From Escherichia coli (GTDB lineage: Bacteria; Pseudomonadota; Gammaproteobacteria; Enterobacterales; Enterobacteriaceae), in NCBI RefSeq assembly GCF_013315695.1, contig NZ_CP054353.1: a stretch of DNA of 64,000 bases. One strand, given 5' to 3'. Below the pieces are notes generated by a model, which was not told the DNA's origin, ran no database searches, and worked only from the letters and a program-made list of their open reading frames with translations. Shown here one piece after another: positions 1,384 through 29,697 of this stretch. The position numbers were made by a program, and so were the translations under genes. Each line of letters opens with the position of its first letter. Position 1 is the stretch's first letter.

Positions 1384-1455
1384 CGCAATTTCTCCGTCTG
1401 TGTCTTCGTCCGGCGAAATACTCCCACGCGCACGGAGGCGCTGTAATCCTGCGTA

Positions 1456-1481
1456 TGTTGTCGGAGAACGGTGAGAACAGG
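1456..1481 (+). promoter_or_regulatory. Candidate Ogr-dependent late promoter element upstream of FI
   Basis: TGTTGTCGGAGAACGGTGAGAACAGG lies about 65 bp upstream of FI start; a near-identical 26-mer (23 of 26 positions) recurs upstream of P at 20014..20039. Confidence 0.4.
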
Positions 1482-1545
1482 CAGCGCGTGAATGCGGGGC
1501 TGTTTTTCGGGAGGATGTCGCCACACAAAACACCAGGAGGTGCTC

Positions 1546-2727: not shown

Positions 2728-3243
2728 ATGGCTGTACCACGTTACGTTCGCCAGTTCACGCTGTTTGTGAACGGCAAAAACAAAATCGGCACGGTGACAG
2801 GCGTCACTCTGCCCAAGCTGACCCGAAAAACCGAAGCCTATCGCGGTGGCGGGATGCTGGGTGCGGTGCATATTGACCTCGGACTGGATGACGGCGCACT
2901 GGATGCCTCGTTCACCACCGGTGGGGTTGAAAAAGAGCTGCTCCAGGAATACGCCACTGACATTAACGAAGTGGCGCTGCGCTTTGTGGGTGAGCTGTTC
3001 ACCGATGGTGAGGAAAGTCAGCTCCTTGAGGTGGAGATGCGCGGACGCATCACGGAAATCGACCGTGGCGAAACCAAACAGGGCGACACCACACAGTACA
3101 CCTTCGCCGTCAAAAACACCTACTACAAGGAGTCGGTGGATGACAGTGATGTGACAGAAATCGACCTGCTGAACTTCATCTACAAAAAAGACGGCCAGAA
3201 CGTCTTTGGTGACCGCGTGAGTTCGGCGCTCGGTCTGAACTGA
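2728..3243 (+). CDS. FII: Tail tube protein FII
   Basis: 171-aa ORF immediately after FI, as in the P2 FI-FII pair; size matches P2 FII. Confidence 0.85.
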   Translation: MAVPRYVRQFTLFVNGKNKIGTVTGVTLPKLTRKTEAYRGGGMLGAVHIDLGLDDGALDASFTTGGVEKELLQEYATDINEVALRFVGELFTDGEESQLLEVEMRGRITEIDRGETKQGDTTQYTFAVKNTYYKESVDDSDVTEIDLLNFIYKKDGQNVFGDRVSSALGLN

Positions 3244-3289
3244 CAGCATTAACAGGGCGGCACATTGTGCCGCCACAGGAGAAAGAAAA

Positions 3290-3673
3290 ATGGCAGCAAA
3301 GAAAGATGACATCATGAACAGCGAAATCGTCGCAGGTGACACCACCACTGAAAACATCGATGTGGCAGAGGAAAAAACGGGGGTGAAGTTATCCTGCCCG
3401 GTGGTGCGTGGCGAACGCGTTATTGACTACGTGGAGATTGGCGAGGAAATCCGTCAGGCAGGCTCGTTGCGCGGGCTGTCTCTGATTGAGGTGCTGAACC
3501 TCAAAACGGACCCGATGATGACGCTGCTTTCGCGCGTGACCGCACCACGCCTGAAGCTGGCAGAAATCCAGACACTGGACACCGGTGATTTCGTGGCGCT
3601 GGCGACTATGGCTGCGAATTTTTTTGCTCCCACGGAGTCTGCGAAACCGTCCGTGGCGGTGATGGAAGCGTAA
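3290..3673 (+). CDS. E: Tail assembly chaperone E
   Basis: Position between tube and tape measure; contains a run of seven T followed by G at 3619..3626, matching the P2 E/E' slippery site type. Confidence 0.75.
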   Translation: MAAKKDDIMNSEIVAGDTTTENIDVAEEKTGVKLSCPVVRGERVIDYVEIGEEIRQAGSLRGLSLIEVLNLKTDPMMTLLSRVTAPRLKLAEIQTLDTGDFVALATMAANFFAPTESAKPSVAVMEA

Positions 3674-3836
3674 TCACGCTGGCGAAGTTCGACAACGTTG
3701 AAGAACTGGTCGCTGATATAGCAGTCGTGTTTAACTGGTCGCCCGGCGAGATATTCTCAATGCCTCTCGTCGAGGTGATGAGCTGGCGTGAGCGGGCGGC
3801 GCAACGTAGCGGAGTCCGCAACAGTGAAATCCCTTG
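3290..3836 (+). CDS. E': E+E' fusion product predicted from -1 programmed frameshift at 3619..3626
   Basis: After a -1 slip on the T-run, the frame stays open to TGA at 3834..3836 and encodes ...VITLAKFDNVEELVADIAVVFNWSPGEIFSMPL..., resembling the conserved P2 E' extension. Confidence 0.55.
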
Positions 3837-6800
3837 ATATTCGTGTCAGCTTTGGCGCAATTGACCGGCTGACATGCCCGACCGAAAACGCCCGCCGTCA
3901 GGTGGGCGCTCTCACTGAATCCCTTCAGAAGACGCAGAACAACATACAGGCGCTCGACAGACAGTCGAAGGTGTTCGATCGTGCCGCCGGAAATCTCAGT
4001 AAATACCGCGAACAGATTGCCCGCGCGGAGCAGAGGCTCGCCGGGCTGCGAAAGGCAGAGCAGAACGGTAACATCCTCTCCGAAAAGCAGCGCGAAACGC
4101 TGGCGGCACTCTCCGCGCGGCTTGAGCGCCTGAACGAGCTGCGCACGCGCGAGCGCGAAAAACTCCAGGCGGCGGCTGGCGAAATGCGTAAACATGGCAT
4201 TCTGCTTTCCGGCAGCAGCCGCACCATCGAAAGTGCCGTTCGTCGCACGCAGCAGTACAACGAGCAGCTCGAGCGTGAACGGCAGGCTCTGGCTCGCGTG
4301 ACGCAGGCACAGAGCCGCTATGAGGCCGCGAAGGCACAGGCGGAAAAACTGCGCAACACAGGGGCTGTGGCGATGGCGGCGGGTACAGGCGGCCTGTATG
4401 CGGCGCAGCGCATGATGGCTCCGGCGATGGAGTCCGAACAGCACGGTGCGGTCATCGCAGCCGGTTCGGGGGAAGGCGCACAGGATGGCGCACGTTACAC
4501 CCACATCATCCGTAACATACAGGCTGACGGTCTCGCTGATTTTGCCGGTGCTGCGGAGGCCGTGAGTGCGGTACGCAGCACGCTCGGCGCACTGGGCGAC
4601 ACCGGTGACAGGGAGCTTGAGCGCATCAGCCGTCGTGCGCTGGATATGCGGACCGTCTTTGGTGTTGATGTGCCGCAGAGCATTCAGGCCGCTGCCATCA
4701 TGATGAAGAACGGGCTGGCCGCCAGCAGTGACGAGGCTACTAACCTGATGACGGCAGGGATGCAGCGCATGTCCGCTGAAATGCGCGATGAACTGCCGGA
4801 AATTCTGCATGAGTATTCCACCCACTTCCGCAACATGGGCTTCACCGGCAGCGAGACAATGAGTCTGCTGGTTGAGATGGCAAAGCAGGGCAAGTTTGCG
4901 CTGGACAAAACCGGCGATGCCGTGAAGGAGTTCAGTATCCGTGGTTCGGATATGTCGAAATCCAGTGTTTCAGCGTATGAGACACTTGGCCTGAATGCCG
5001 AACGGGTGTCTGCTGCCATTGCTCAGGGGGGCAGTACCGCACGCCAGGCGATGCAGGTGACCGCCCGTGCACTGCTGGCCATCCGTGACCCGGCAGAGCG
5101 GGCGAACACGGCCATTGCGTTATTCGGCACCCCCGTTGAAGACCTTTCCGTTGACCAGATCCCGCAGTTCCTGAGGGCGCTGGCTGATGTTCGTGACAAT
5201 CTGGGCGATGTCACCGGTGTGGCAGACCGCATGGGGCAGACGCTGCGCGGTAATCTCTCCGGCGATATTCAGGCGCTGAGTGGTGCGTTCTCAGGGCTAC
5301 GCACGGACATCTTCGGTACTGTGACCGAGGATTTGCGCGGGCTGGTTCAGACGGTGAGCGCGTGGGTGACCCGGATGCGCGAATGGGTCGGAGAGCATCA
5401 GGCGCTGGTCAGGGTGCTGGTACTGGCGGGCGGGAGTGTTCTGGCGCTGTCTTCTACGTTCGGTGCGCTGTCACTGACGCTCGGGCTGATTGCGGGGCCG
5501 CTGGCAAAACTGCAACTGGGACTGGGGCTGCTGACGGGGGGCGGCGGCATTGGTGGTGCTGTCCGGCTTGTGTCTGCGATGGCGCTGCGCCTGACGGGGC
5601 TGCCTGCGCTGTGGGGGCTGGTCACGGGGGCGGTGTCGGTACTGGGTGGTGCAGTGGGGGCGCTGTTCAGCCCGGTCGGGCTGATTGTTGCCGCCCTGGT
5701 GGGCGGCGCGGTTCTGGTGTGGAAATACTGGGATCAGATCAGTGCGTTTTTTTCCGGCTTTTTTGCCGGAGTGTGGGAGGCGCTGCAACCGCTGCGGGAA
5801 GCCTTTGCGTCGCTGGCTCCGGTGTTCGGGCTGATTGGCGATGGCATCAAAGCCGTGTGGGAATGGTTCACCCGCCTGCTTGAACCTGCAAACGCCTCAA
5901 AAGAGACACTCGACAAATGCACCAGCGCCGGGGAGTCGTTCGGGAAAACGCTGGGGTGGGTCATTCAGAACATTGTGCTGGGGCCGCTGACACTGCTTCT
6001 TGATGGCCTCGGCACAGTGCTGAAGTGGCTGGGTGTTATCCCGGATGGCATCAGGGAAGCGCAGAAGGAGACGCAAAAACTCCAGGAGAGCGCCGCAAAA
6101 CAGGCCACACAAAAAGCGCCGGTTGCGTGGGAGTGGGATCCTGCACAGAAAAAAATGGTGCAGAAAACATGGTCGTGGTCATCAGATGCAGCGGAAAACA
6201 ACGGTGACAATAAACCCGCAATACCTGCCCCTGCGGTTCCCGGAGAGGTGAAGGGAACGTCAGACAATCCGGTCGGCAAACCCGGTAGTAAATCCCCGCT
6301 GGATGAGGCATGGTTCCGGCAGGGGATACAGAAAACCGCCAGCAACACCGGCGGGCTGCTTGAGGAAACCAAAAAACGTACTGGTCCCGGCGATATTGTT
6401 TTCAAAAACCTGCCCGGACCCGAAATCATTCACGGCGAGTGGAAAGCACCGCAGGTTATCCGGACAGTGCAGGCGGTATCGGCGGGCGGAGGACTGGCGG
6501 ATGCGCTGACAACGCTCTGGCAGAAACTCACCGGAAGACAGACTGCTTCACCCGTTCCGGTCGTGAATATTCCTGCGCCAGTGGAGAGAGTGGCACGTCA
6601 GGTATCCACGCTGCCACAGCCGCAGCACAACGAGGCAAATACAGAACTGGTTGCCGGTATTCAGCGCGTGCATGAGGCTGTGAACAGTCCGGGGGGAGAG
6701 ACGGTATCGCCTCCACCTGTGGTGAACGTTCTGATGCCAGCAGTGAATGTTCCTGCGCCAGTGGTGAGTGTGGCGCGTCAGGTATCCACGCTGCCGCAGC

Positions 6801-7288
6801 ACAACGAGGCAAATACAGAACTGGTTGCCGGTATTCAGCGTGTGCATGAGGCGGTGAACAGTCCGGGTGGAGAGACGGTATCGCCTCCACCTGTGGTGAA
6901 CGTTCTGATGCCAGCAGTGAATGTTCCTGCGCCAGTGGTGAGCGTGGCCCGTCAGGTATCCACGCTGCCGCAGCACAACGAGGCAAATACAGAGCTGGCT
7001 GCCGGTATTCAGCGCGTGCGTGAGGCTGTGAACAGTCCGGGTGGAGATGTGGCTTTATCTGTTCCTGTTGCGGAGGTTATCCGTCCACCGCTGCGACCGG
7101 AGTCCGTCAAAAAAGAAACCGCGCCACAAACGCAGGCTGCGGTATTTTCCGGTGAGATACACGTGCATCTGCACAACGTCAACACGCAGAATCCGCGTGA
7201 ACTGGCAAAACTGGTTGGCGAGGCTGTCCGCGAAGAGATGCGCAGACAGGTGCGTACAGGCATGAACAGCTTCCGTGACAGGGACTAA
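3788..7288 (+). CDS. T: Tail tape measure protein T
   Basis: 1166-aa ORF after E/E' with coiled-coil N-terminal part, Gly/Ala/Leu-rich hydrophobic core and internal tandem repeats; start codon uncertain (GTG 3788 or a downstream GTG). Confidence 0.85.
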   Translation: MSGRRNVAESATVKSLDIRVSFGAIDRLTCPTENARRQVGALTESLQKTQNNIQALDRQSKVFDRAAGNLSKYREQIARAEQRLAGLRKAEQNGNILSEKQRETLAALSARLERLNELRTREREKLQAAAGEMRKHGILLSGSSRTIESAVRRTQQYNEQLERERQALARVTQAQSRYEAAKAQAEKLRNTGAVAMAAGTGGLYAAQRMMAPAMESEQHGAVIAAGSGEGAQDGARYTHIIRNIQADGLADFAGAAEAVSAVRSTLGALGDTGDRELERISRRALDMRTVFGVDVPQSIQAAAIMMKNGLAASSDEATNLMTAGMQRMSAEMRDELPEILHEYSTHFRNMGFTGSETMSLLVEMAKQGKFALDKTGDAVKEFSIRGSDMSKSSVSAYETLGLNAERVSAAIAQGGSTARQAMQVTARALLAIRDPAERANTAIALFGTPVEDLSVDQIPQFLRALADVRDNLGDVTGVADRMGQTLRGNLSGDIQALSGAFSGLRTDIFGTVTEDLRGLVQTVSAWVTRMREWVGEHQALVRVLVLAGGSVLALSSTFGALSLTLGLIAGPLAKLQLGLGLLTGGGGIGGAVRLVSAMALRLTGLPALWGLVTGAVSVLGGAVGALFSPVGLIVAALVGGAVLVWKYWDQISAFFSGFFAGVWEALQPLREAFASLAPVFGLIGDGIKAVWEWFTRLLEPANASKETLDKCTSAGESFGKTLGWVIQNIVLGPLTLLLDGLGTVLKWLGVIPDGIREAQKETQKLQESAAKQATQKAPVAWEWDPAQKKMVQKTWSWSSDAAENNGDNKPAIPAPAVPGEVKGTSDNPVGKPGSKSPLDEAWFRQGIQKTASNTGGLLEETKKRTGPGDIVFKNLPGPEIIHGEWKAPQVIRTVQAVSAGGGLADALTTLWQKLTGRQTASPVPVVNIPAPVERVARQVSTLPQPQHNEANTELVAGIQRVHEAVNSPGGETVSPPPVVNVLMPAVNVPAPVVSVARQVSTLPQHNEANTELVAGIQRVHEAVNSPGGETVSPPPVVNVLMPAVNVPAPVVSVARQVSTLPQHNEANTELAAGIQRVREAVNSPGGDVALSVPVAEVIRPPLRPESVKKETAPQTQAAVFSGEIHVHLHNVNTQNPRELAKLVGEAVREEMRRQVRTGMNSFRDRD
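6560..7060 (+). repeat. About 2.7 tandem copies of an in-frame ~174-bp unit inside T
   Basis: Peptide unit PAPVVSVARQVSTLPQHNEANTELVAGIQRVHEAVNSPGGETVSPPPVVNVLMPAVNV repeats near 6565, 6747 and 6921; the first copy carries an extra PQ. Confidence 0.8.
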
Positions 7289-7301
7289 AGGAGACGCAAT
7301 T

Positions 7302-7760
7302 ATGATGATGATTTTTGGCATGTTTGTGTTTGAACTGAAAACGCTGCCGCATCAACAGATTCAACAAAACAAAACGTGGCGGCATGTGAAAAATGAGCGA
7401 ATCAACCGTTCTGCGGCCTGGCAGTATATTGGCGCAGGTGACGACCAGATCACGCTGTCCGGTCTGCTGTACCCGGAAATTACCGGCGGTGAGGTGTCGC
7501 TGACACTGCTGAACACCCAGGCCTACACCGGATGTCCCTGGCCGCTGATTGATGGTACGGGGCAGATTTACGGAATGTACGTGATTACGGGATTACAGAC
7601 CACCCGCTCCGAACTGGATCGCTACGGGAAGGCAAAAAAGATTGAGTTCTCCATCAGCTTTCAGCGGTGTGATGAGGATATGCGGGAGAGGCTTCAGTCT
7701 GCTTCTGCAGGTGATTTACTGAACACGCTTAAAGACAAAATGGCGATAGCGGCATTCTGA
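7302..7760 (+). CDS. U: Tail protein U
   Basis: MMMIFGMFVFELKTLPHQQ...DDQITLSGLLYPEITGG... resembles P2 gpU; RBS AAGGAG before ATG 7302. Confidence 0.85.
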   Translation: MMMIFGMFVFELKTLPHQQIQQNKTWRHVKNERINRSAAWQYIGAGDDQITLSGLLYPEITGGEVSLTLLNTQAYTGCPWPLIDGTGQIYGMYVITGLQTTRSELDRYGKAKKIEFSISFQRCDEDMRERLQSASAGDLLNTLKDKMAIAAF

Positions 7761-7908: not shown

Positions 7909-8070
7909 GCATGCATTGTGTGAAGATTTAATTTTTCTGCTTGCAGGGGGATTATATTGAACGGTATTCATTCAATGCAATATTTTTAATTGTCATTATC
8001 ATTAATGAAAATGTTTCTTGTGTTTTTGTTGCTCTGATTACAATCCCGTTTATTACTGTGTCTTTGCGGC

Positions 8071-8097
8071 AAAAAAAAAGCCCGCACGGGGCGGGCA
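8071..8097 (-). terminator. Rho-independent terminator candidate (minus strand), just downstream of the decayed G
   Basis: GCCCGC-ACGG-GGCGGG hairpin with an A9 run on the plus strand (U-run on minus). Confidence 0.6.
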
Positions 8098-8140
8098 AAG
8101 AATGTTTGCATGTGTAGAACAGTGCGGGATTATAAATATA

Positions 8141-8711
8141 TTATGCGTTCTGAAAAGTCCCCTTTGATGGAGATTCAGGCCATACCAGCGCATTATAACA
8201 ATCTTTATTCATCACGGAAGTGAACGTCAACTGCTGAAGTTCCCTAATATATTCAATCCACGTAGCCAACCTTCCCTTGTCTGCATTGCTGATGGTGCCG
8301 GGCAATAACTCAGATTGCCAGATTCTGATCCTCTCTTTTGCCTCCGGCAGCAGGGGATTTCGTTGTCATTCTGCTTTAGCCTGCCACTTTTCAGGTGGCA
8401 GCACATGACGAACAATATTTTCATCATCAAATATCCAGTTACCTGAGTCATCAGCACGTTGGTTAGCGTTAATATCAGAAGTATTAACAACACTAAAACC
8501 GACATGATTAAGTGTTGATGCCTCTCTGGTAATGGTGACAATAATATTATTTCGTTGTAAATCATTTTGATTTTATCTGGTCGAAAGGTCCCTGCTTCGT
8601 TATGTCAGTTTTATCGCCTTCAGAGGAAACCAGATTACTTTGTGCTTCTTTTTCTAACACATACAGTCCCGGAGTTAATATTGCCTGTTTTATGTTCTTG
8701 AGTGCATCATA
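8141..8711 (-). pseudogene. G: Decayed tail fibre assembly gene G (frameshifted, with an early in-frame stop)
   Basis: Minus-strand translations in two frames give NNIIVTITREASTLNHVGFSVVNTSDINANQRADDSGNWIFDDENIV and ...ADKGRLATWIEYIRELQQL...VWPESP, resembling P2 gpG; the N-terminal part reads MMHSRT-stop. Confidence 0.6.
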
Positions 8712-8767
8712 TTAATCTCTTACATATTGTATCTGGTGAAATTTATAATTTTCTGAAGCTGCCTGAA

Positions 8768-8898
8768 AGAATTGAGTTTCCTGCAGGCTTTCAATGGTGT
8801 GATGAGGATATGTGGGAGAAACTCCAGTCTGCTCCTGCAGGGGGGGCTTACTGAACACTATCAAAGACAAATCTTCGTCGTTGATCGCATTCCCTTAA
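8768..8898 (+). pseudogene. Diverged second copy of the 3' end of tail gene U (fragment)
   Basis: DNA is homologous to 7631..7760 (roughly four-fifths identical by eye, TGTGATGAGGATATG core conserved), with a G7 run causing a frame break; the 5' part of U is absent. Confidence 0.6.
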
Positions 8899-8903
8899 CC
8901 TGA

Positions 8904-8938
8904 CGCCACCACCCCACACAGATGACGGGGTGGTGGCG
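8904..8938. terminator. Strong GC hairpin between the U fragment and the tail-fibre operon
   Basis: CGCCACCACCCC-loop-GGGGTGGTGGCG perfect 12-bp stem; no clear U-run, so terminator function is uncertain. Confidence 0.35.
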
Positions 8939-8943
8939 TGATT

Positions 8944-9240
8944 TCACCAGTAACTAACCAGCAGCCAGAACAACAGGCATATTGCCACTGGTGCAGCAAA
9001 ATCCATCAGGCTTCCGGCATCCCACACGCGCGGATCAAAACCACCCCACCAGGGCATGTTAATTCGTTTCCCTTTCCCGAATTTTTCAATCCAGCGATAT
9101 TCTGCCTGGGTGTGTTCACGCGCAATGAAGAACGAGCAACCGGCTATCGCTCCGTAAACCCAGTTTCCCGTAAGAATGCCAGCCAGTACCTGCGCAGCCA
9201 CGGCACAAAGTGCATGAAGGACAGGCGTTATATCCATCAC
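8944..9240 (-). CDS. Small two-TM membrane protein of unknown function, last gene of the tail-fibre operon
   Basis: 98-aa ORF with hydrophobic N- and C-terminal segments; GGGAGG RBS 9 bp upstream; co-directional with and immediately downstream of H and orf92. Confidence 0.6.
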   Translation of the reverse strand: MMDITPVLHALCAVAAQVLAGILTGNWVYGAIAGCSFFIAREHTQAEYRWIEKFGKGKRINMPWWGGFDPRVWDAGSLMDFAAPVAICLLFWLLVSYW

Positions 9241-9249
9241 TCCCTCCCT

Positions 9250-9528
9250 TCAGCTCCATTCCCGAAGCGGTGCTTCCAGCTCCACCACATAATCAGAGAA
9301 CACAGAAACATCAAACGTATCATCAAGAATACGAATGTTGACAAAATAACCGTCATTCCGGATACAGACAGGTTCTCCCTCTTCATTTTCCCCTGTTTCT
9401 GTATAGGTGAAACCAATTTCATCGACTAACAGTTTGTTCTGGAGGTCTTCATTTTCCTCCCAGCCAAGAGATGACAGGAGGGCTTTAAACTGCTGTTTGT
9501 CATGAAACTTCAAAGTCAAATCTTTCAT
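9250..9528 (-). CDS. Acidic 92-aa protein translationally coupled to tail fibre H (candidate non-canonical fibre chaperone)
   Basis: ATGA start/stop overlap with H at 9525..9528; no resemblance to P2 gpG noticed; occupies the position G holds in P2. Confidence 0.55.
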   Translation of the reverse strand: MKDLTLKFHDKQQFKALLSSLGWEENEDLQNKLLVDEIGFTYTETGENEEGEPVCIRNDGYFVNIRILDDTFDVSVFSDYVVELEAPLREWS

Positions 9529-11306
9529 ATTGCCTCTCTTAATTGCCTGTCATTTAATTCTTTATGCCATATGCGGAAATTACGAATGTGACCAAACAGA
9601 TGTCGTTCTCCAGTACTCGTTCGCCCTCCAATACGGATAATTGCGGAGTTCTGAATATATGACCATGTGGTTTTTGTTTCGCCGGATAACCGTCCGTTAC
9701 TGACTGAGCATGTAGACTGATCTGACTTTACTCGCATCCCTATAACCATTTTTTCAAGTGATGCGTTTTCGTTTACCCGCATGTTAGCCCCGCCTATATC
9801 GCAATAAGGAAATCCGTCGTAATCCGTCGAACGACCGAATCCAAGAATAATTTCCTCTCCAGTTTGATGACCACTGGTATTAAGAACACGCGGTGCTGCA
9901 TTTGGCGTTTTATACCAGTTCTTATGTACCTCACAAAGAACAGTAAAAGGAGGATTATAAAGATTATTCTTAACCGGAACTGTCACAATATCACTTGCAC
10001 GTGTTGCTGGTGTTGCACCCGATATAATAAATGATGATGCGCAGGGGCCATTTTCAACCTGAGGGGTGGACAGGAAAACATAATCTCCTGATTCAACGAC
10101 ACCACCTTCTTTCGGAGTGTATTGTATTGCCGATGTTATGTAGGACTCATCAATTGCCTGAATCGTTGCCTCTGCAAAAATCCAGCCGGTAACCTCATCT
10201 TTGTTAACTCGGGCAGTGATCCTGTCGGCAGCTCCTCCTGTGATTTTAACTGATAAAGATCGCGTATTAACAATGGCATATCCAAGGTTAGATGATGTGT
10301 TGCCATCGTAAGATTCAAACCTGATCCTTAACATGAGTTCCAGATCAGTTTTAAATCTGCACGATGTCGTCACGCACTTATTATCGCCTGAAACATCGAC
10401 GGCTCCGGTTACTGCAACTGATGCCATGTTAACAGGCAGGGACTGCCCAATCAGAGAATCGTTACAGACGAACTTTCCATAGGTAAAACCAGAACTGTCC
10501 GTCCCGGTTTCGGGAACATCCATATTTACCGACTTGCCCCAGTTGACCGGGGTTTCCGAATTGAGCATGTAGTTTGTTCTTTGCCCTTCAATAAGCAGTC
10601 CATCGCGTTCAAATCGCGGCTCATTAATTTCAGCTATTTTCAGTTCACCGGATTTATTGATATAGGTTGCCGTTGATGCGCGACTGAAACTAACCTGTTT
10701 ATCACTGGCAACCTGAACCACATCGTCACCAATGGTGATTTTTTTATAGCCCGGTGCGAACCCCGTAAGCATATCCAGTGAATCGTTAAACGGTATCCAC
10801 ACATCAGGCAGCGGCGGTACAGACTCCTTTTCCTGCGCAACATATTCTTCAACATAGGCGCGGGTGGCGAGCACGACAGAGGGATCAACTTTCAGTTCGA
10901 CAGACGAAGCACTGGAAACCACAACAATCATGCGAATCGTCTGCGTGCGCCCGCTTCCCTCGGTGAGTACAGGCTTGTAGGTTTCGGGGCAGTTCGCCAC
11001 GGCAATCATCACGCCGTCGCTGTCAAAAAGCCCAATCTCGCGGATCCAGAACCCCCCTTTATCTTCCGGGATAATCATCTCGGCGATAAGCTGGCTGGCA
11101 TCAGACGCGCTGATGCTCAGTTGATTCAATGGGGCGCTGTATACCGTGTTCACCAGATTTTCCATGGAAGCCTCCGGTTCCGGCAGGCTGCCGCCGCCAT
11201 CCCCCAGTTTCATGGTGGTGATGGATATTTTCGAGCCGCTGGCCACCGCCTTTGCCAGACGGGCGGCACCCTTGTCAGTCAGAACAGAAAAATATTTTAC
11301 AGTCAT
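9525..11306 (-). CDS. H: Tail fibre protein H (conserved P2-like N-terminus, divergent C-terminal region)
   Basis: N-terminus ...ITTMKLGDGGGSLPEP...WIREIGLFDSDGVMIAVANCPETYKP...SGRTQTIRMIVVVSSASSVELKVDPSVVLATRAYV matches P2 gpH; the rest is unrelated, as expected for a receptor-binding part. Confidence 0.85.
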   Translation of the reverse strand: MTVKYFSVLTDKGAARLAKAVASGSKISITTMKLGDGGGSLPEPEASMENLVNTVYSAPLNQLSISASDASQLIAEMIIPEDKGGFWIREIGLFDSDGVMIAVANCPETYKPVLTEGSGRTQTIRMIVVVSSASSVELKVDPSVVLATRAYVEEYVAQEKESVPPLPDVWIPFNDSLDMLTGFAPGYKKITIGDDVVQVASDKQVSFSRASTATYINKSGELKIAEINEPRFERDGLLIEGQRTNYMLNSETPVNWGKSVNMDVPETGTDSSGFTYGKFVCNDSLIGQSLPVNMASVAVTGAVDVSGDNKCVTTSCRFKTDLELMLRIRFESYDGNTSSNLGYAIVNTRSLSVKITGGAADRITARVNKDEVTGWIFAEATIQAIDESYITSAIQYTPKEGGVVESGDYVFLSTPQVENGPCASSFIISGATPATRASDIVTVPVKNNLYNPPFTVLCEVHKNWYKTPNAAPRVLNTSGHQTGEEIILGFGRSTDYDGFPYCDIGGANMRVNENASLEKMVIGMRVKSDQSTCSVSNGRLSGETKTTWSYIQNSAIIRIGGRTSTGERHLFGHIRNFRIWHKELNDRQLREAI

Positions 11307-12079
11307 GAAAAAATCCTCAAAGAATCCTCCAGAAATACCACTGATGCTGTCAGGGTTCCGGTTGTGGCGGTCAGTTGCATCACCGCCTGTGGCTCCACGG
11401 TCACCGCATCATCGCCCGTAACCTGTAATCCCATGACAATCCCCGCATCGACAGATACCGACGGTGTCGGCGGGTAAATGGTGAGCATGTCGCCGTCAAA
11501 GAAAGCCGGAGATGCCCGGAACACCGAAACAGTCTCAACACCGGCAGAAGCGGCTGGCCAGATTGTTGTTTCACTGCCGTCGTGCATGCCGGAAAACACA
11601 CGTGCGACTCCCTGCGTATCCAGCATAATGTTCAGCGAGGCAAGGTGGCGGCTGACCGGACGGGCATCGTCGATCAGTCGTGTCAGCTCGGAGTACGTTT
11701 CCTCTGTGATACCCGCGTCCTGCACGCCAATATCAATGCGGAACGTGCCGCGCGGGTCGCCGTTCTGCCACCACTCCGTCACGTTAATGACATAGCCAAA
11801 GGGTTCAACCACACGCCTGATGGCGCTGATGGTTCCCTTATGGCGGTGGATTGCCCAGGCATCACGGATCACCTGGCGCTTTGTTTCTTCCGTCCAGTCA
11901 CGATCCCACCTGTCCACGGACAGCGCCCACGCCAGATAAGGCAGCAGGGCTGCCGGGCAGGTGTCAGGATCCCAGAGCTGGTTAAGGCTGACAGGTAATG
12001 CTGACAACCGGGCGGTTCCCCGCTCCACGCAGCGCATGAAATCGCTGGCTGAAGGGGGGAGAAGTGACGGTTCACTCAT
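11303..12079 (-). CDS. I: Baseplate protein I
   Basis: DTCPAALLPYLAWALSVDRWDRDWTE motif typical of P2 gpI; start placed at MSEPSLLPP. Confidence 0.8.
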   Translation of the reverse strand: MSEPSLLPPSASDFMRCVERGTARLSALPVSLNQLWDPDTCPAALLPYLAWALSVDRWDRDWTEETKRQVIRDAWAIHRHKGTISAIRRVVEPFGYVINVTEWWQNGDPRGTFRIDIGVQDAGITEETYSELTRLIDDARPVSRHLASLNIMLDTQGVARVFSGMHDGSETTIWPAASAGVETVSVFRASPAFFDGDMLTIYPPTPSVSVDAGIVMGLQVTGDDAVTVEPQAVMQLTATTGTLTASVVFLEDSLRIFS

Positions 12080-12968
12080 TGGTTCCCCCTGTGCTGACCG
12101 TGAACGATGTGCAGTACGCTGACTGCACATCACTGATAACAATATTCTGTGCGGGGCTGGTCAGTTCCACGCGCTGAACGCCCTGAACATGCAGTGCGGC
12201 CATGATGGCGGAGAGCGCGACATCGCGACCGATTTTGCCCTGTTCGGCAAGCCAGGTTTCCAGATTGTTTCTGGCGGCATTCAGGATGGGTTCCGACTCC
12301 GGCCCCGGATAAAAGTAAAGCCGGGCATCAATCTGATACCGTATGATTTCTGCGCTCTGCACCGTCAGACGGTCACCGACCGGGCGAACGTCTTCGGCAT
12401 TCAGCGCATTTCTGACCGTTGTCAGGAGTTCTTCGGTCGCCGTGCCGTCGCCTTCTGTGGACAACACTGTCACCACCACTTCCGCCGGTGCGGGGCTGGT
12501 TGCGCGCGCGTCCGCCACCTGACCGCTGGCACTGCGGGCAAAATATTCATACGCCCCGGTGGGACCGGCCACGCTGAGGCCATCAAATGCAGACTGCGCA
12601 CGCAGCCGCAGGGCGGAGTCGCTTTCCATGACGGCCTCCGTGGTGTCCATGGCCGGTGTGATGACCAGCCGCGCGGTGTTCATGTTGGCAGCGAGGTTGT
12701 CCAGGTCATCACCTGTGGAATGGCTCAGCATACAGGCCGCTGCGCCCTCATTAATGCGCTGGCGAAGCAGCAGTTCACGCAGCGCGAAAGCCTGGGCAAT
12801 GACCGTGAGCGGTTCGGACTCCAACGCCATGGCTGACCGGATGGCAGCCTGCTGTGTCTGTGGAAATGACGTAATGATGTCTTCTTTCACTTCCGCTAGG
12901 ATGACTTCAAAATCCGGCGTTTCAATAATCTGTGGTGTCGGCAGTTCCGACAGGTCAACGGCTGGCAT
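12072..12968 (-). CDS. J: Baseplate protein J
   Basis: 298-aa ORF at the P2 J position with matching size; overlaps W and I ends as in P2. Confidence 0.85.
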   Translation of the reverse strand: MPAVDLSELPTPQIIETPDFEVILAEVKEDIITSFPQTQQAAIRSAMALESEPLTVIAQAFALRELLLRQRINEGAAACMLSHSTGDDLDNLAANMNTARLVITPAMDTTEAVMESDSALRLRAQSAFDGLSVAGPTGAYEYFARSASGQVADARATSPAPAEVVVTVLSTEGDGTATEELLTTVRNALNAEDVRPVGDRLTVQSAEIIRYQIDARLYFYPGPESEPILNAARNNLETWLAEQGKIGRDVALSAIMAALHVQGVQRVELTSPAQNIVISDVQSAYCTSFTVSTGGTNE

Positions 12969-13320
12969 TGTCGCTCCTGAGTGTCAGTGTGTTCTGTACG
13001 GTTTCCAGGCTTTCTGTCAGTGTGCCGGTGAGGGTGATAACGGCTTTTCCGCCCGCCTCCCACTGAATGTCAACGGCATTCAGGGCGATGCGTGGCTCCC
13101 ACTGTGTCAGGGCAATCACCACGGCGCTCATGCACTGAAGGCGCGTGGTGGCATTCATCGGTGCATCCAGCAAATCCGGCAGCAGGCTGCCGTATTCCCG
13201 GCGCATCACCCGGCTGGCGAGCGGTGTTAACAGAATATCCCTCACGCTGTTCCACAGATGGTCCGTGTCGCTGAGCGTGCCGGTGGCCTCGGGGTTCATC
13301 CCCAGAAAACGGGCACTCAC
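12955..13320 (-). CDS. W: Baseplate protein W
   Basis: 121-aa ORF between V and J, size and position as P2 gpW. Confidence 0.8.
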   Translation of the reverse strand: MSARFLGMNPEATGTLSDTDHLWNSVRDILLTPLASRVMRREYGSLLPDLLDAPMNATTRLQCMSAVVIALTQWEPRIALNAVDIQWEAGGKAVITLTGTLTESLETVQNTLTLRSDNASR

Positions 13321-13898
13321 TGCGGGCCTCCTGTGCTGTCACCGCCGCTCTTCACGCCACTGTGTTTGTGCGTGTGCAGCGTCACACCGTTTGAGGTGAA
13401 ATCACCGCCGCTGTGCGAGATACTGCCACTCATGGTTCCGCCTTCTGTCACCTCAATCGTTGTCGTCTTCAGATGGTTTGTGCAGGTGACGGTGGGGGTA
13501 TCCAGCGTCACGCCTGTTCCGGCCTGAATGGTGGCAGTTTTGATTCCGCTGGCGCTCAGTGCGCCAGCGTCCGCATCGTAGCGGAACACCGCGCCGTCAG
13601 GCGCTGTAACCACGATTTCCGTCAGGCTGCTGCCGGGCGCCGGATGTTCGCTGCTCCAGAGACTGCCGATGACGGACGCGGTCGCGGGGTCGCCACCGAT
13701 GCAGGCAATCATGACCTGTTCGCCCACGGCAGGCGGCAGCCAGACGCTGAACGCGCCCGCGCGTGGTGTGTTCCAGCGCAGCCAGTCGGTTTCCAGCTCT
13801 CCGCTGCGCACGCGAACGCGCCACGTTGTTTCGTCCACGGCAAAAATCACGCCCGTGCGGATGATATTTGCAAGCAGTCGCATGATTTCCGCTGTCAT
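13317..13898 (-). CDS. V: Baseplate spike protein V
   Basis: 193-aa ORF at the P2 V position, Gly/Thr/Ser-rich C-terminus. Confidence 0.8.
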   Translation of the reverse strand: MTAEIMRLLANIIRTGVIFAVDETTWRVRVRSGELETDWLRWNTPRAGAFSVWLPPAVGEQVMIACIGGDPATASVIGSLWSSEHPAPGSSLTEIVVTAPDGAVFRYDADAGALSASGIKTATIQAGTGVTLDTPTVTCTNHLKTTTIEVTEGGTMSGSISHSGGDFTSNGVTLHTHKHSGVKSGGDSTGGPQ

Positions 13899-14533
13899 CG
13901 TGCTGCACTCCCCAGGGAACGGATAATCGCGTCACGCATCCGGCGTTCGTCGGCTGCGGTCACACCCAGCAGTTCACGCACCGGGTAGGTGGTCATCACG
14001 CCCGGTGTCACCTCGTCGCGTAACCCCGCCTGATGCACGCGGGCAATCCGCGCAGCCAGGCCATCAAAGCCCACCACAGCGCCTTCCGCATCTGAGCGCA
14101 TTTTTAACCAGCGATATGTGCGAAGACGCGCGAACATCGGCGTGCTTTTCTTGCTGGTCTGGCGGGCAGACATGGACGATACAGCGAGGTATCGTTCAAT
14201 ATCATCGCGGTAAAACGTCCTCAGTGCGCCGCCACGGTCAGGGTCGCGCCCGATGATGGCGCGGCCTTTCCGGTAACGTTTGTGCCCCCACTGGCGCAGC
14301 GTGCGGACCTCGCCGTTCCAGACAAACTTCACCTCCCGGCGGGTGTGCATTACCTGCTGTTTTCGCGCCGGATACGGCGAACCGTCTGCGTTCTTCTGCG
14401 TACGGATACGCGCCTGCTGGCTCTGGCGCAGCGCCTGCCCGACAGCCCTCGCCGTGCGTGCACGTCCGGCGGTGGAAAGTCCGTTCAGGATGTCGCGGAA
14501 AACCGCGTCCGGGTCATGCGTCGTCGTGTTCAT
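13895..14533 (-). CDS. S: Tail completion protein S
   Basis: Position between R and V; start uncertain (ORF is longer than P2 gpS). Confidence 0.7.
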   Translation of the reverse strand: MNTTTHDPDAVFRDILNGLSTAGRARTARAVGQALRQSQQARIRTQKNADGSPYPARKQQVMHTRREVKFVWNGEVRTLRQWGHKRYRKGRAIIGRDPDRGGALRTFYRDDIERYLAVSSMSARQTSKKSTPMFARLRTYRWLKMRSDAEGAVVGFDGLAARIARVHQAGLRDEVTPGVMTTYPVRELLGVTAADERRMRDAIIRSLGSAAR

Positions 14534-14996
14534 CCGTCAAATCCTTAAAGGTCACATCCTCAACAATCAGCTCTCCCCAGGCTCCTGTCAGTGCGGCAGG
14601 CGGGCGGGGTTCCGGCAGGTGCACCGGATACAGTTCCCCCTGTTCATTGCGACAGACTTTCACGCGCTCGCGCACGGGAATTTCCAGTAACAGGTCGGTG
14701 CTGTCGTCGTCATTGACGGCAACGGAAAACTTAACGTCCTTGTTTTTCTCCGGGTTGAGCAGCAAATCCGGCTGGTTGTGCATGAGCCAGACAATCAGCG
14801 GCAGCATCAGCTCGTCGATGTGTCCCGGAAAATCCATGACGAAGGCCACGAGCGTGTAACGGTAGACAAACGTCGGGGTTTCACCCGTGGTCTCAATACT
14901 TCCGCTTTCTGCAAACACGGTGAGTTTTTCCGGATTCGCGCGACACCACCGGGATGAGGCGGTGAGGGCTTCGCGCAGACGGTTCATTTTCAGCAT
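14514..14996 (-). CDS. R: Tail completion protein R
   Basis: 160-aa ORF at the P2 R position, size as P2 gpR. Confidence 0.7.
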   Translation of the reverse strand: MLKMNRLREALTASSRWCRANPEKLTVFAESGSIETTGETPTFVYRYTLVAFVMDFPGHIDELMLPLIVWLMHNQPDLLLNPEKNKDVKFSVAVNDDDSTDLLLEIPVRERVKVCRNEQGELYPVHLPEPRPPAALTGAWGELIVEDVTFKDLTDEHDDA

Positions 14997-15005
14997 GACT
15001 TCTCC

Positions 15006-15289
15006 TTACGGTCGCATCCGGCGTTGTTGTTCGGTTGCTTTAATGGCTGCCTTGTCAGCGTTGCAGCTCTCCAGTGCGTCCAGCAGCCGGTCACTCCAGA
15101 CGGCCAGTCCGCCCCACGTCAGCGGACGGGGCAGGGACGGCACCGGCGTTGGCTGTGTCAGACTTTCCGGCAGCGGTGCGTGCTGCGTCTGAGTGACCAC
15201 GACGGGGCGCGGCGCGCTGTTGCAGGCGGTCAGCAACAGCGGCAGGCACAGCAGCAGCCGCGCACGGATTTTCCCGGAGTGTGTTGCGT
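15006..15289 (-). CDS. lysC: o-spanin (LysC/Rz1-like outer-membrane lipoprotein), embedded out of frame in lysB
   Basis: GTG start with GGGAGA RBS; VKRYATHSGKIRARLLLCLPLLLTAC signal peptide with lipobox LTAC; Pro-rich mature part. Confidence 0.65.
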
Positions 15290-15537
15290 ATCTCTTCACG
15301 GCGTTTTTCTCCCTCCTGATTCCGGTGCTGCTCTGCGGCGCGGACCTGCGCCAGCAGGTCGCTGATGCCCCGGAGTTCCGCATGAAGTGCATCCACGGCG
15401 GCATTTGTTCCCGCCAGCGCCTGTTCGTGATATTCCCGGCGCGCCCGTTCATGCCCTGCCTGCCAGGCCAGACGCAGTGACACCAGATACAGCGCCCCCG
15501 AAAACAGGGCGACGACGGCGGCGGTGGTCAGCCTCAT
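15091..15537 (-). CDS. lysB: i-spanin (LysB/Rz-like)
   Basis: N-terminal TM segment MRLTTAAVVALFSGALYLVSL then charged coiled-coil-like region; overlaps the endolysin end and contains lysC. Confidence 0.7.
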   Translation of the reverse strand: MRLTTAAVVALFSGALYLVSLRLAWQAGHERARREYHEQALAGTNAAVDALHAELRGISDLLAQVRAAEQHRNQEGEKRREEIRNTLRENPCAAAAVPAAVADRLQQRAAPRRGHSDAARTAAGKSDTANAGAVPAPSADVGRTGRLE

Positions 15538-16076
15538 TTCTGTTTCTCCACATCCCGCAGACACCAGGCGCGAAAATCGCTGCGGCGGTTAACCAGTCCC
15601 TGACTGCGCTTCCCGCCTGCATTCACAAAATCAGTGAGGCGGGCACACATCCGCGCCCAGTTATGCGCCTGTGCCTGTTTCCAGATGGTGGTGCGCTGGC
15701 GCTTACCGTTGCGGTCCCTGAACCACATCAGACCGGAGCACCCCAGATTGAAGGCTGCATCCGTCATCGCCTCGAAGGCCGACTGCGGCATGGCTGCCCC
15801 CTGAAAATTCTGGTTAATACAGCTCTCCGCCCGCTGCATGTCATTCACCCAGCGACGGGCCACCTCCTGCTCGCTGTACAGGTGTTTCTGTACGTTCCCC
15901 GTGGAGCCGCAGCCCACGGTGGCAACACCCGCGATGTCCGTGTAGGGTGTGGCGCGGCAGTCTTCCCACGTGGCAATTTTTATCTGTGCCTCCTGTGAGG
16001 TGCGCAGTGCTTCAGGAGCCAGCGAGACACCCAGCGCCACAATCACGGCGGCGGCATATCGCTTAATGTTTTTCAT
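15534..16076 (-). CDS. K: Endolysin, lysozyme-like with N-terminal signal-anchor (SAR-type) segment
   Basis: MKNIKRYAAAVIVALGVSLAP hydrophobic N-terminus followed by ...ATPYTDIAGVATVGCGSTG... lysozyme-like motifs; start placed at the third in-frame ATG. Confidence 0.75.
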   Translation of the reverse strand: MKNIKRYAAAVIVALGVSLAPEALRTSQEAQIKIATWEDCRATPYTDIAGVATVGCGSTGNVQKHLYSEQEVARRWVNDMQRAESCINQNFQGAAMPQSAFEAMTDAAFNLGCSGLMWFRDRNGKRQRTTIWKQAQAHNWARMCARLTDFVNAGGKRSQGLVNRRSDFRAWCLRDVEKQK

Positions 16077-16356
16077 CGTTATCCCGTTGCAGTGCGGCAA
16101 GCGCCCGTTGTTCACTTTCATGAAGCCCGCGCGTTCCGGCCTGTGCCAGAATCTGTGCAATCAGCGCATTGCGGCGGACCTGCGCACGCTCCATGCGGCG
16201 ACGGTGAAGCCAGCCCTGAAAGAGTGAAAGCGCACCCAGCAGCAGCCCGGCCAGCGCGATTTTTTCGCTGATGGTCATCGCGCCAATCGTGACCGCAGAG
16301 ACGGAGGCGGCGAAGGCGATGTGGTCGTAAATACTGCGAAAAAAACCTAATCCCAT
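16063..16356 (-). CDS. Y: Holin candidate
   Basis: Two hydrophobic segments then charged C-terminus (HRRRMERAQVRRN), directly upstream of the endolysin. Confidence 0.6.
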   Translation of the reverse strand: MGLGFFRSIYDHIAFAASVSAVTIGAMTISEKIALAGLLLGALSLFQGWLHRRRMERAQVRRNALIAQILAQAGTRGLHESEQRALAALQRDNDEKH

Positions 16357-16553
16357 AACTGCACCGTCTCCCGTGTTTTTTTCTCTTCCTGCTCCGGTAA
16401 TTCCACTTCCTGTCCGGCCTCCAGAAAAATCTGTCCGCACAGCCCCGGATTGGCGGCCAGCACCTTTTCGGTCACGCCCTGCGTTGTGCCGTAGTGCCGG
16501 AAGCACAGCAGGTCAACGGTGTCGTCCTGTAATGCCTTCACCTTCATCAGCAC
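16347..16553 (-). CDS. X: Tail protein X
   Basis: 68-aa ORF at the P2 X position between L and the holin. Confidence 0.7.
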   Translation of the reverse strand: MLMKVKALQDDTVDLLCFRHYGTTQGVTEKVLAANPGLCGQIFLEAGQEVELPEQEEKKTRETVQLWD

Positions 16554-17041
16554 AGCCTCGCAAAGATGCGCGGTGCGCCCTGAATATCGGCAATGGCCCA
16601 GCGCACGTCGCGCCAGAGGTCACCGGTCTGGGCTTCCAGTGCGTCCGCTTTCCGGTCGCCCTGTTCGGTGGTGTCCACATCGCGCACGCGCTCCAGTATC
16701 AGGGCGCGGGTGGCGGCATACACCGCAAGACGGAAGCGGTGCACGTTGACGCTTTCGCCGTTCACGCGGGAAGCCGGAACGTCCGCCAGCGTGCGGTATC
16801 CGTCATTCATCTGCTGCGTCTGCCAGTTGCGCAGCTCACCGGTGACGTGTGCCACGGCTTCGGTTGCCGCGTGCATCAGGCGCGACGTGGTGGTGCGACC
16901 GGGCAGGCGCACGGCAAGACGCAGCGCGCGCAGTTCTGTCTCCGGCCAGAAGTCGTCCGTGGTGATGCGTGCATCACCGTCGTCCGTGTCCGCGACATCC
17001 TCCGTCGCGGCAGTGATACCGGGTTTTGCAATCATGCTCAT
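16547..17041 (-). CDS. L: Head completion protein L
   Basis: 164-aa ORF at the P2 L position. Confidence 0.8.
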   Translation of the reverse strand: MSMIAKPGITAATEDVADTDDGDARITTDDFWPETELRALRLAVRLPGRTTTSRLMHAATEAVAHVTGELRNWQTQQMNDGYRTLADVPASRVNGESVNVHRFRLAVYAATRALILERVRDVDTTEQGDRKADALEAQTGDLWRDVRWAIADIQGAPRIFARLC

Positions 17042-29375: not shown

Positions 29376-29697
29376 GGTGTGGCCTCTTTGCTCGGTGATA
29401 GAAATAGCTCACCATCCAGAGTTGAGAATCTCGGGGTGGCGAGACGTACAGGGTTCTCAACACCGGAGAGCAAAGAATCCGGCCCGACCGAAGTCGGCCC
29501 CGTACGTCCCGCCATAATTCTGACGCGAAAAAGACGTGGCAATACAGTACGCACAAAAAAACCGCTGGCGCGGTTATGCGCTTTGCTCTGTATCGGGTTG
29601 AGAATCCCGGCACCCGTTTTATGAGGTGCAGCGGAAATGTAACCTGACCGATTGCGGCATGGCAAGCGGTTTTTTTGTGTGTGCATGTTCTGGTTTC

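Follow-up and report, generated by a model that had tools for sequence, protein, structure and literature searches.

Gene organization of the lysis cassette

An intact lysis cassette was found on the minus strand of the Escherichia coli DNA analyzed in this study, a stretch of 64,000 nucleotides hereafter called the window. Four intact genes, encoding a holin, an endolysin and two spanins, fill the interval 15006-16356 exactly, in agreement with the initial annotation of the locus (Table 1). The cassette forms part of the late operon of a P2-like prophage (Peduoviridae), where it is flanked by the tail gene X and the tail-completion gene R and the genes are arranged on one strand in the order L-X-holin-endolysin-lysB/lysC-R-S. 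The starts and stops of X, holin, endolysin and lysB overlap successively by 10, 14 and 4 nt. Neither a promoter-like or terminator-like site nor a P2-like attenuator was found on the coding (minus) strand between 13800 and 17200.

Table 1. Features of the lysis cassette, with positions in the window.
Feature	Position	Strand	Description
Holin	16063..16356	-	97 aa; 10-nt overlap of its start with the 3' end of gene X
Endolysin	15534..16076	-	180 aa; signal-anchor-release (SAR) type (assigned indirectly), GH24 (T4-lysozyme-like) muramidase
SAR core, endolysin codons 7-20	16017..16058	-	YAAAVIVALGVSLA; preceded by K5 R6, followed by P21 E22
i-spanin (LysB/Rz-like)	15091..15537	-	148 aa; ATG overlaps the endolysin stop (ATGA)
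o-spanin (LysC/Rz1-like)	15006..15299	-	97 aa precursor; GTG start
lysC ribosome-binding site	15300..15317	-	aggagggagaaaaacgcc; within lysB; read directly from the sequence

The same gene order is present in prophages of Dickeya, Klebsiella and E. coli, and in one further E. coli prophage that is near-identical to the one studied here. When the cassette was compared by megablast with 50,697 phage records, no near-identical record was returned, and the distant blastn matches were to Enterobacter phage phiT5282H (66%) and to Klebsiella prophage-like phages. The matches of the endolysin to PF00959 and P1 Lyz and of the o-spanin to PF23793, given below, are far beyond chance. Scans for defence systems and against NCBIfam gave nothing useful for the holin and the spanins.

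The endolysin

The endolysin belongs to the Pfam family PF00959 (Phage_lysozyme; E 2e-23, 83 bits against a cut-off of 22.3 bits) and to the endolysin family phrog_7 (E 2e-47). Its best solved relative is Lyz of phage P1 (1XJT/1XJU; E 6e-32, ~40% identity), the founding SAR endolysin, and it is 39% identical to Lys of the Haemophilus phage HP1 (E 6e-35). The residues E38-x8-D47-x5-T53 show exactly the canonical spacing of the GH24 triad, in which Glu is followed eight residues later by Asp or Cys and another five residues later by Thr (PMC4640515). The initial annotation had described a hydrophobic N-terminal segment in front of a lysozyme-like domain; both were recovered, the segment as Y7-A20 and the domain as a muramidase with its triad in place.

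An AlphaFold model of the protein (pLDDT 87.5) superposes on the active form of P1 Lyz, 1XJT, with a TM score of 0.86 and an rmsd of 2.0 Å. The fit to the secreted inactive form of P1 Lyz is far poorer (TM 0.57), and a TM score of 0.68 was obtained for R21, the endolysin of phage 21 (3HDE), which is only distantly related, with 22% identity in the fold alignment. The start codon of the endolysin is kept in six loci. Longer forms of the protein starting at TTG 16160 or ATG 16121 were rejected, since only the ATG that precedes the catalytic Glu by 37-38 codons is common to all six loci; this ATG is the sole possible start in the Klebsiella endolysin.

The spanin pair

The i-spanin has an N-terminal TM segment (~4-25) and one periplasmic cysteine (C92), and its periplasmic domain is expected to be largely helical. 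It matches the Rz-like spanins of phrog_214 (E 1e-23), and only weakly PF10828 (DUF2570), which is recorded for its relatives. The start of the gene is conserved in relatives.

The o-spanin gene lysC lies in the +1 frame of lysB and starts at GTG 15299, with GGAG 9 nt upstream (aggagggagaaaaacgccGTG); purine-rich GGAG-like motifs are found at the corresponding position in the relatives. Its product has the lipobox L-T-A/C26, and Asn at position +2, from which sorting to the outer membrane is predicted. A Pro-rich linker and the conserved C-terminal motif W..LLDALESCNADKAAI are also present, and the protein matches PF23793 (LysC; E 9e-17) and phrog_456 (E 5e-23). The different reading frame, the GTG start, the separate ribosome-binding site and the lipobox had all been described in the initial annotation and were borne out. 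The alternative LysC of 148 aa from ATG 15452, which is the RefSeq annotation, was rejected: its lipobox would fall at residues 74-77, too distal for a signal, and the GTG start with its ribosome-binding site is conserved in the relatives.

The earlier description of lysC as lying entirely inside lysB was not correct. The two genes share 209 nt, and lysC continues for 85 nt beyond the lysB stop, which ends at 15091, to its own stop at 15006. In four related loci (L001, L004, L005 and L006), lysC likewise runs past lysB, by 85-148 nt, and so does lysC of P2 (lysB 7922-8347, lysC 8202-8492). Based upon the definitions of overlapped and embedded spanin architectures (PMC6139136), the pair is of the overlapped P2 lysB/lysC type and not of the embedded lambda Rz/Rz1 type.

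The holin

Two TM segments are predicted in the holin by hydropathy (~13-27 and ~33-50), with a loop of five residues between them. The C-terminus is basic and predicted to be cytoplasmic (HRRRMERAQVRR...), and both ends are placed in the cytoplasm, the class II topology, by the positive-inside rule alone. The protein matches the holin family phrog_1350 (E 1.5e-18) and is 32% identical to the holin of HP1 (E 4e-6). Its score against PF16080, the HP1 holin family (Phage_holin_2_3), is 20.9 bits, under the gathering cut-off of 28.8 bits, whereas all five of its relatives match this family (best E 4e-6). No dual-start motif was found in the gene.

Probable signal anchor and type of holin

The endolysin begins with MKNIKR, which contains the basic residues K2, K5 and R6, followed by the 14 weakly hydrophobic residues Y7-A20 and by P21. 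This is the composition given for SAR endolysins, namely a weakly hydrophobic N-terminal TM segment after two to three basic residues (PMC9239132). Six of the 14 residues of the core YAAAVIVALGVSLA are Ala, Gly or Ser. The best 15-residue window of the segment has a Kyte-Doolittle mean of 1.97 and a summed Hessa-scale energy of +2.4 kcal/mol, a less favourable insertion than that of the SAR domains of P1 (-1.0) or R21 (+0.35). The segment is conserved in the alignment of the endolysin family, and the alignments with P1 Lyz and HP1 Lys extend through it. A short core after a basic n-region also resembles the h-region of an ordinary cleavable Sec signal peptide, and cleavage after S18 (G16-V-S18/L) would obey the -3/-1 rule; the enzyme would then be a soluble periplasmic endolysin restrained in some other way. 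We regard this as unlikely, since the sole A-x-A-like site (S-L-A/P) has the nearly invariant Pro21 at +1, and Trp or Phe occupies position -1 in some relatives. Moreover, sister proteins with nearly the same segment carry Cys8, which matches Cys13 of P1 Lyz and, because of this homology and the mechanism of P1, has to be retained when the enzyme matures. The AlphaFold model packs helix 9-19 (pLDDT ~96) into the enzyme body as in active P1 Lyz, and only 17 residues separate the segment from the catalytic Glu, a trait of SAR domains rather than of signal peptides (PMC7692668). The SAR-type assignment of the initial annotation is supported, but only indirectly, by homology and by the structure model.

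Pinholin-type control of such an endolysin, which had also been suggested, is at most plausible. The holin gene is directly beside the SAR endolysin gene, the usual pairing for a pinholin (PMC9025707), and the predicted class II topology is that of the phage 21 holin S21. The first TM segment (TMD1) consists of 60% Gly, Ala, Ser and Thr, and, while all relatives match a class II holin family in Pfam, one of the five also matches the P21 holin S family PF04971 (E 0.004). These points argue against the rival view that the holin is of the canonical, large-hole kind, or at any rate no pinholin, and would merely depolarise the membrane for the SAR endolysin as LydA of P1 does for Lyz. Such a role is rather doubtful to us, but it deserves serious weight, as in both P1 and fOg44 the SAR endolysin works together with a canonical holin (PMC6116005, PMC9025707). 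BLASTP detected no similarity of the holin to the pinholins S21 and P1 LydD, the hhalign probability for S21 is 9%, the holin itself has no Pfam match to PF04971, and its TMD1 (KD 1.89) is more hydrophobic than that of S21. The 97-aa protein might also be a releasin-like or antiholin-like accessory factor instead of the lysis timer, with the endolysin released spontaneously or in a host-dependent way. Phage Mu lyses without a holin by means of the 99-aa membrane protein gp25, and it is two basic residues beside the SAR anchor that create the need for gp25 (PMC9239132), the position held here by K5 and R6. However, gp25 has one N-out/C-in TM segment and an acidic cytoplasmic domain, whereas the 97-aa protein has two hydrophobic segments, and its juxtamembrane region is basic. 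The protein has no match to DUF2730 (PF10805, the Mu releasin) at E <= 0.01, and it matches holin families and occupies the position of gene Y in P2, so that an accessory role is very improbable. Since K5 and R6 resemble the feature that ties Mu gp22 to its releasin (PMC9239132), release of the endolysin may nevertheless take more than depolarisation.

Cysteine pattern and possible activation of the endolysin

P1 Lyz is activated by disulfide isomerisation (Xu et al. 2005, as presented in PMC6116005). The endolysin has cysteines at positions 40, 56, 86, 113, 144 and 172. In its alignment with P1 Lyz, the SAR residue Cys13 falls in the same column as Tyr7, Cys51 at the catalytic position is replaced by Asp47, and Ile60 by Cys56; Cys44 corresponds to Cys40, and four further cysteines are conserved. 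With no SAR cysteine and with Asp47 in place of the catalytic-position cysteine, the switch of P1 cannot operate here. By analogy with R of phage 21, control of the enzyme would have to rest on tethering and refolding.

The distribution of these residues in the family is sharply divided. Among cluster representatives at 90% identity, 15, including the type found here, lack the SAR cysteine and have Asp47 and Cys56, 26 are of the P1 type, and intermediates number zero. When representatives at 50% identity were taken from the proteins with a cysteine at Glu+2 and a hydrophobic N-terminus, 43 had the SAR cysteine, none of them with a cysteine at Thr+3, and four had the Thr+3 cysteine and no SAR cysteine. 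Across the family, a SAR cysteine and a Thr+3 cysteine exclude one another, and none of these representatives at 50% identity has both. This exclusivity is in line with a choice between two partners for the Glu+2 cysteine, which is invariant; judged from covariation only, Cys40 is probably paired with the lineage-specific Cys56. We tentatively suggest, as a quite possible reading, that these proteins form an unnoticed regulatory subclass in the P1-Lyz clade, in which a fixed Cys40-Cys56 (Glu+2/Thr+3) disulfide replaces the isomerisation switch and activation would proceed only by release of the anchor and refolding.

Comparison with known phage lysis systems

The closest counterpart is found in HP1, which like this prophage is P2-like and belongs to the Peduoviridae. 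Its holin and endolysin are homologous to those of the cassette, and the genes hol, lys and orf25 follow the same holin-endolysin-i-spanin order. An unannotated ORF for a lipoprotein (o-spanin) starts inside orf25 in another frame and ends beyond it. The two cassettes differ in location, that of HP1 following the tail sheath and tube genes and this one lying between X and R. Moreover, HP1 Lys has the P1-type cysteines (the SAR cysteine and one at the catalytic position), which are missing here, and the i-spanins have no detectable similarity. P1 Lyz has the GH24 fold and an N-terminal signal anchor in common with the endolysin, the model of which corresponds to its active form.

Phage 21 follows the same proposed logic: its holin is of class II, its SAR endolysin has the canonical Glu-Asp-Thr triad and no SAR cysteine, and its spanin is made of two components. 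However, S21 has no detectable sequence relation to the holin, and Rz/Rz1 of phage 21 are embedded, whereas the spanin genes here are overlapped. P2 uses the same genomic slot, from X to R in the late operon, and the same overlapped type of lysB/lysC. Its LysC is weakly similar to the o-spanin (29% identity, E 0.005), which also matches the LysC family in Pfam. No homology of the holin, the endolysin and the i-spanin to Y, K and LysB of P2, respectively, was detectable, and the lysA gene of P2 has no counterpart in the cassette. In P2, Y is a canonical holin and K a cytoplasmic endolysin. We consider it likely that the cassette represents a lysis module of the HP1/P1-Lyz type in complete form, placed in the slot that P2 fills with Y-K-lysA-lysB-lysC.

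Proposed lysis pathway

A pathway can be proposed from the homology to P1 Lyz together with the model of pinholins and SAR endolysins. The endolysin would be exported by Sec without the holin, and its SAR segment would tether the inactive enzyme to the inner membrane. Meanwhile, the holin with its two TM segments would build up in the membrane and collapse the membrane potential at a set time, probably by forming small holes. The SAR segment would then quit the bilayer and refold into the enzyme body, and the peptidoglycan would be degraded. Finally, the outer membrane would be disrupted by a complex of LysB in the inner membrane and the outer-membrane lipoprotein LysC.

Significance of the cassette

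The cassette is an ordinary four-gene module for host lysis, and little would change in the understanding of phage lysis, for which the combination of pinholin, SAR endolysin and spanins is already well described. Hundreds of phage records, of which many are P2-like, contain P1-Lyz-like endolysins, and proteins 96-99% identical to the endolysin and the holin are already held in public E. coli genomes. The practical worth of the analysis lies in the correction of annotation. In RefSeq, the one near-identical prophage examined is annotated with a 148-aa 'LysC' with a wrong start, a hypothetical protein for the holin and no i-spanin, and NCBI names the cluster of the holin 'phage tail protein'. 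Kongari et al. 2018 (PMC6139136) catalogued errors of this class. What is mildly new is that the two cysteines of the P1 switch are absent and Cys56 is present instead. This cysteine swap offers a small, testable lead to the ways in which SAR endolysins change from disulfide-based control to a purely conformational one, or the reverse.

Prophage setting of the lysis cassette

The window is E. coli chromosome, and its ppsA is 100% identical to that of sequenced strains. A P2-like prophage with capsid, terminase, portal, tail and baseplate genes, gpA and an integrase occupies positions ~1-33.8 kb. The lysis cassette sits within its late operon on the minus strand, in the order L, X, holin, endolysin, two spanins, R and S. 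Neighbouring genes in this operon overlap by 10, 14 and 4 nt, and no promoter-like or terminator-like sites were found on the coding strand of the cassette. The G+C content of the lysis genes is 0.58-0.67, above that of the whole prophage (0.55) and of the E. coli flank (0.49), which is consistent with a module that Enterobacterales of higher G+C, for instance Dickeya and Klebsiella, have in common.

Features of the prophage and its lysis cassette (window coordinates)
Feature	Position	Strand	Remarks
D	268-1566	-	
Tail sheath, tube, E, tape-measure, U	1492-7760	+	tape-measure protein 1166 aa
Block with baseplate and fibre genes	9525-14996	-	
S	13895-14533	-	after R
R	14514-14996	-	after the two spanins
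Lysis cassette	15006-16356	-	o-spanin stop to holin start, as initially annotated (exact)
lysC (o-spanin)	15299-15006	-	GTG start; Pfam LysC, E 9e-17
Second phrog_214 match	15006-15164	-	o-spanin C-terminus; profile positions 130-176, E 1e-6
Counterpart of RefSeq 'lysC'	15006-15452	-	447-nt ORF, 148 aa
lysB (i-spanin)	15537-15091	-	148 aa; phrog_214 Rz-like, E 1e-23
Endolysin	16076-15534	-	180 aa; begins MKNIKRYAAAVIVALGVSLAPE...
X	16347-16553	-	precedes holin
L	16547-17041	-	late operon, precedes X
DUF3800 protein	23450-24256	+	PADLOC candidate defence family PDC-M04A, E 2.6e-35
ParM/StbA	24804-25763	-	actin-like plasmid-segregation protein, full-length, E 1.8e-82
C4 antisense RNA	29432-29519	-	Rfam, 79 bits, above gathering score
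isrK Hfq-binding sRNA	29555-29629	-	Rfam, 63 bits, above gathering score

The FI-U block is inverted relative to the P2 gene order and lies on the strand opposite to that of D, of the baseplate and fibre genes and of the lysis genes. A related prophage of E. coli strain 135 shares this layout, and the arrangement is therefore a trait of the lineage and did not arise during assembly. The C4 antisense RNA and isrK matches adjoin each other in the early/immunity region. The DUF3800 gene adjoins the portal gene, in the slot that the 'old' defence gene occupies in P2. The ParM/StbA gene, next to the gene for the 957-aa gpA replication protein, is cargo not expected inside an integrated P2-like phage.

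A putative SAR endolysin

The endolysin possesses a Phage_lysozyme domain (PF00959, E 2e-23; phrog_7, E 2e-47), and comparing the locus with five relatives settled its start codon. Its catalytic spacing, E38-x8-D47-x5-T53, is canonical for the triad cited for GH24-type lysozymes (PMC4640515). The hydrophobic N-terminal segment that the initial annotation placed ahead of a lysozyme-like domain is present: two to three basic residues are followed by a short stretch rich in Ala, Gly and Ser, with 17 residues from the segment to the catalytic Glu (criteria for SAR, or signal-anchor-release, segments: PMC9239132, PMC7692668). By a simple Hessa-scale sum, membrane insertion of this stretch is less favourable than that of the P1 and R21 SAR domains. 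Among relatives with a solved structure, P1 Lyz, the founding SAR endolysin, is the closest (E 6e-32, ~40% identity), and the alignment spans the N-terminal segment; HP1 Lys shares 39% identity.

A cleavable signal peptide in place of an anchor is unlikely, although the rule permits a cleavage site at G-V-S|L. At the sole A-x-A-like site, position +1 is almost always Pro, and position -1 is Trp or Phe in some relatives. Moreover, sister proteins with a near-identical segment carry a cysteine aligned with P1 Cys13, and the P1 mechanism requires the equivalent residue to be kept in the mature enzyme. In the AlphaFold model (overall pLDDT 87.5), helix 9-19 is packed in the body with pLDDT of about 96, and the model resembles active P1 Lyz (1XJT; TM 0.86, rmsd 2.0 Å) far more than it does the inactive, secreted state of that enzyme (1XJU; TM 0.57). 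The SAR type is thus supported indirectly by sequence and model, and we infer the SAR mechanism from homology.

The holin and its possible partnership

The 97-aa predicted holin occupies the position of P2 gene Y. Its matches include phrog_1350 'holin' (E 1.5e-18) and, at 32% identity, HP1 hol (E 4e-6). Its match to the Pfam HP1 holin family is below threshold; all five relatives match that family. The NCBI name of its cluster is 'phage tail protein' or 'hypothetical protein'. Two hydrophobic segments, 13-27 (60% Gly/Ala/Ser/Thr) and 33-50, are separated by a five-residue loop and followed by a strongly basic C-terminal region, and both ends are therefore predicted to be cytoplasmic.

Pinholins are known to pair with SAR endolysins (PMC9025707), and 'pinholin', the type of control proposed initially, is a reasonable guess from topology and pairing; the mechanism itself is proposed from homology. 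Comparison with S21 and P1 LydD, both proven pinholins, showed no similarity; the holin lacks a dual-start motif, and the cassette has no lysA-like antiholin gene after it. Canonical holins also serve SAR endolysins (PMC6116005), and such a holin operating here is a serious, if somewhat less probable, option. Mu employs a releasin instead of a holin (PMC9239132), but the 97-aa protein has no match to DUF2730, the Mu releasin family, and a releasin is very improbable here.

Overlapped spanin genes

The initial annotation holds overall for the cassette, and the GTG start of lysC at 15299, its own GGAG 9 nt upstream and its lipobox L-T-A-C26 were all read; the spanin architecture, however, needs correction. 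lysC does not lie entirely inside lysB: it is in the +1 frame, shares 209 nt and runs 85 nt past the lysB stop, so that the pair is overlapped and not embedded. The Asn at +2 predicts outer-membrane sorting of LysC. Relatives in E. coli, Dickeya zeae and Klebsiella variicola likewise have a GTG-started lysC in the +1 frame extending 85-148 nt beyond lysB, and P2 lysB/lysC has the same layout. Kongari et al. 2018 class such pairs as 'overlapped', the commonest arrangement in their survey (228/528 systems), with P2 as type example (PMC6139136).

Constraint is divided between the two frames. The LysC signal peptide is overlapped by the conserved LysB motif C-x4-P-x-AV-x-D-x-LQ-x-RA and its Pro-rich linker by the poorly conserved LysB tail, while the stretch downstream of the lysB stop encodes the later portion of the conserved C-terminal motif of LysC (LLDAL onward, ...SCNADKAAI). 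The second phrog_214 match lies in a frame other than that of the i-spanin, and this family probably includes frame-fused or mis-called members. In a near-identical E. coli prophage (NZ_CP080260.1), the RefSeq 'lysC' comprises the whole ORF and its start is wrong: the lipobox would fall at residues 74-77. The i-spanin gene there has no RefSeq annotation.

Distribution and related systems

The module fills the Y-K-lysA-lysB-lysC slot of P2. Of the cassette proteins, only LysC is still weakly linked to P2; the holin and endolysin are homologous to those of HP1. The spanin genes of HP1 overlap as well, since a lipobox ORF (MQKIKIGLMAACLTMLLAC...) begins within orf25 in another frame and passes its stop; the o-spanin is unannotated in the HP1 reference record (8652-9300). 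The same module occupies the same slot in Dickeya and Klebsiella prophages, Enterobacter phage phiT5282H and other E. coli strains, and P1-Lyz-like endolysins were found in 294 phage records. In E. coli the cassette is rare (6/5,426 complete genomes, 95-98% identity).

Cysteine exchange among P1-Lyz-like endolysins

Representatives of 90%-identity clusters with an intact motif region fall into two types, without intermediates. Twenty-six, the P1-type, carry Cys both in the anchor and at the position of the catalytic Asp, and Ile, Leu or Met three residues after the catalytic Thr; the other 15, including the window endolysin, have Tyr, Asp and Cys at the same sites. Cys40 (P1 Cys44) is invariant in this set. 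A set of 1.84 billion 50%-identity representatives was also searched exhaustively, and the proteins in it that have Cys at Glu+2 and a hydrophobic N-terminus are consistent with this clean split: none of 43 proteins with the anchor cysteine has Cys at Thr+3, four without it do, and the remaining three appear N-terminally truncated (Fisher p 1.5e-4, indicative only because the counts include related sequences).

It follows directly from these residues that the disulfide isomerisation of P1 cannot operate in the window endolysin, which resembles phage 21 R in its canonical triad and lack of an anchor cysteine. We hypothesize that Cys56 may take the place of the anchor cysteine as partner of Cys40. 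The locus is an ordinary, intact lysis cassette of a type already known, and this cysteine covariation is its sole mildly new point.
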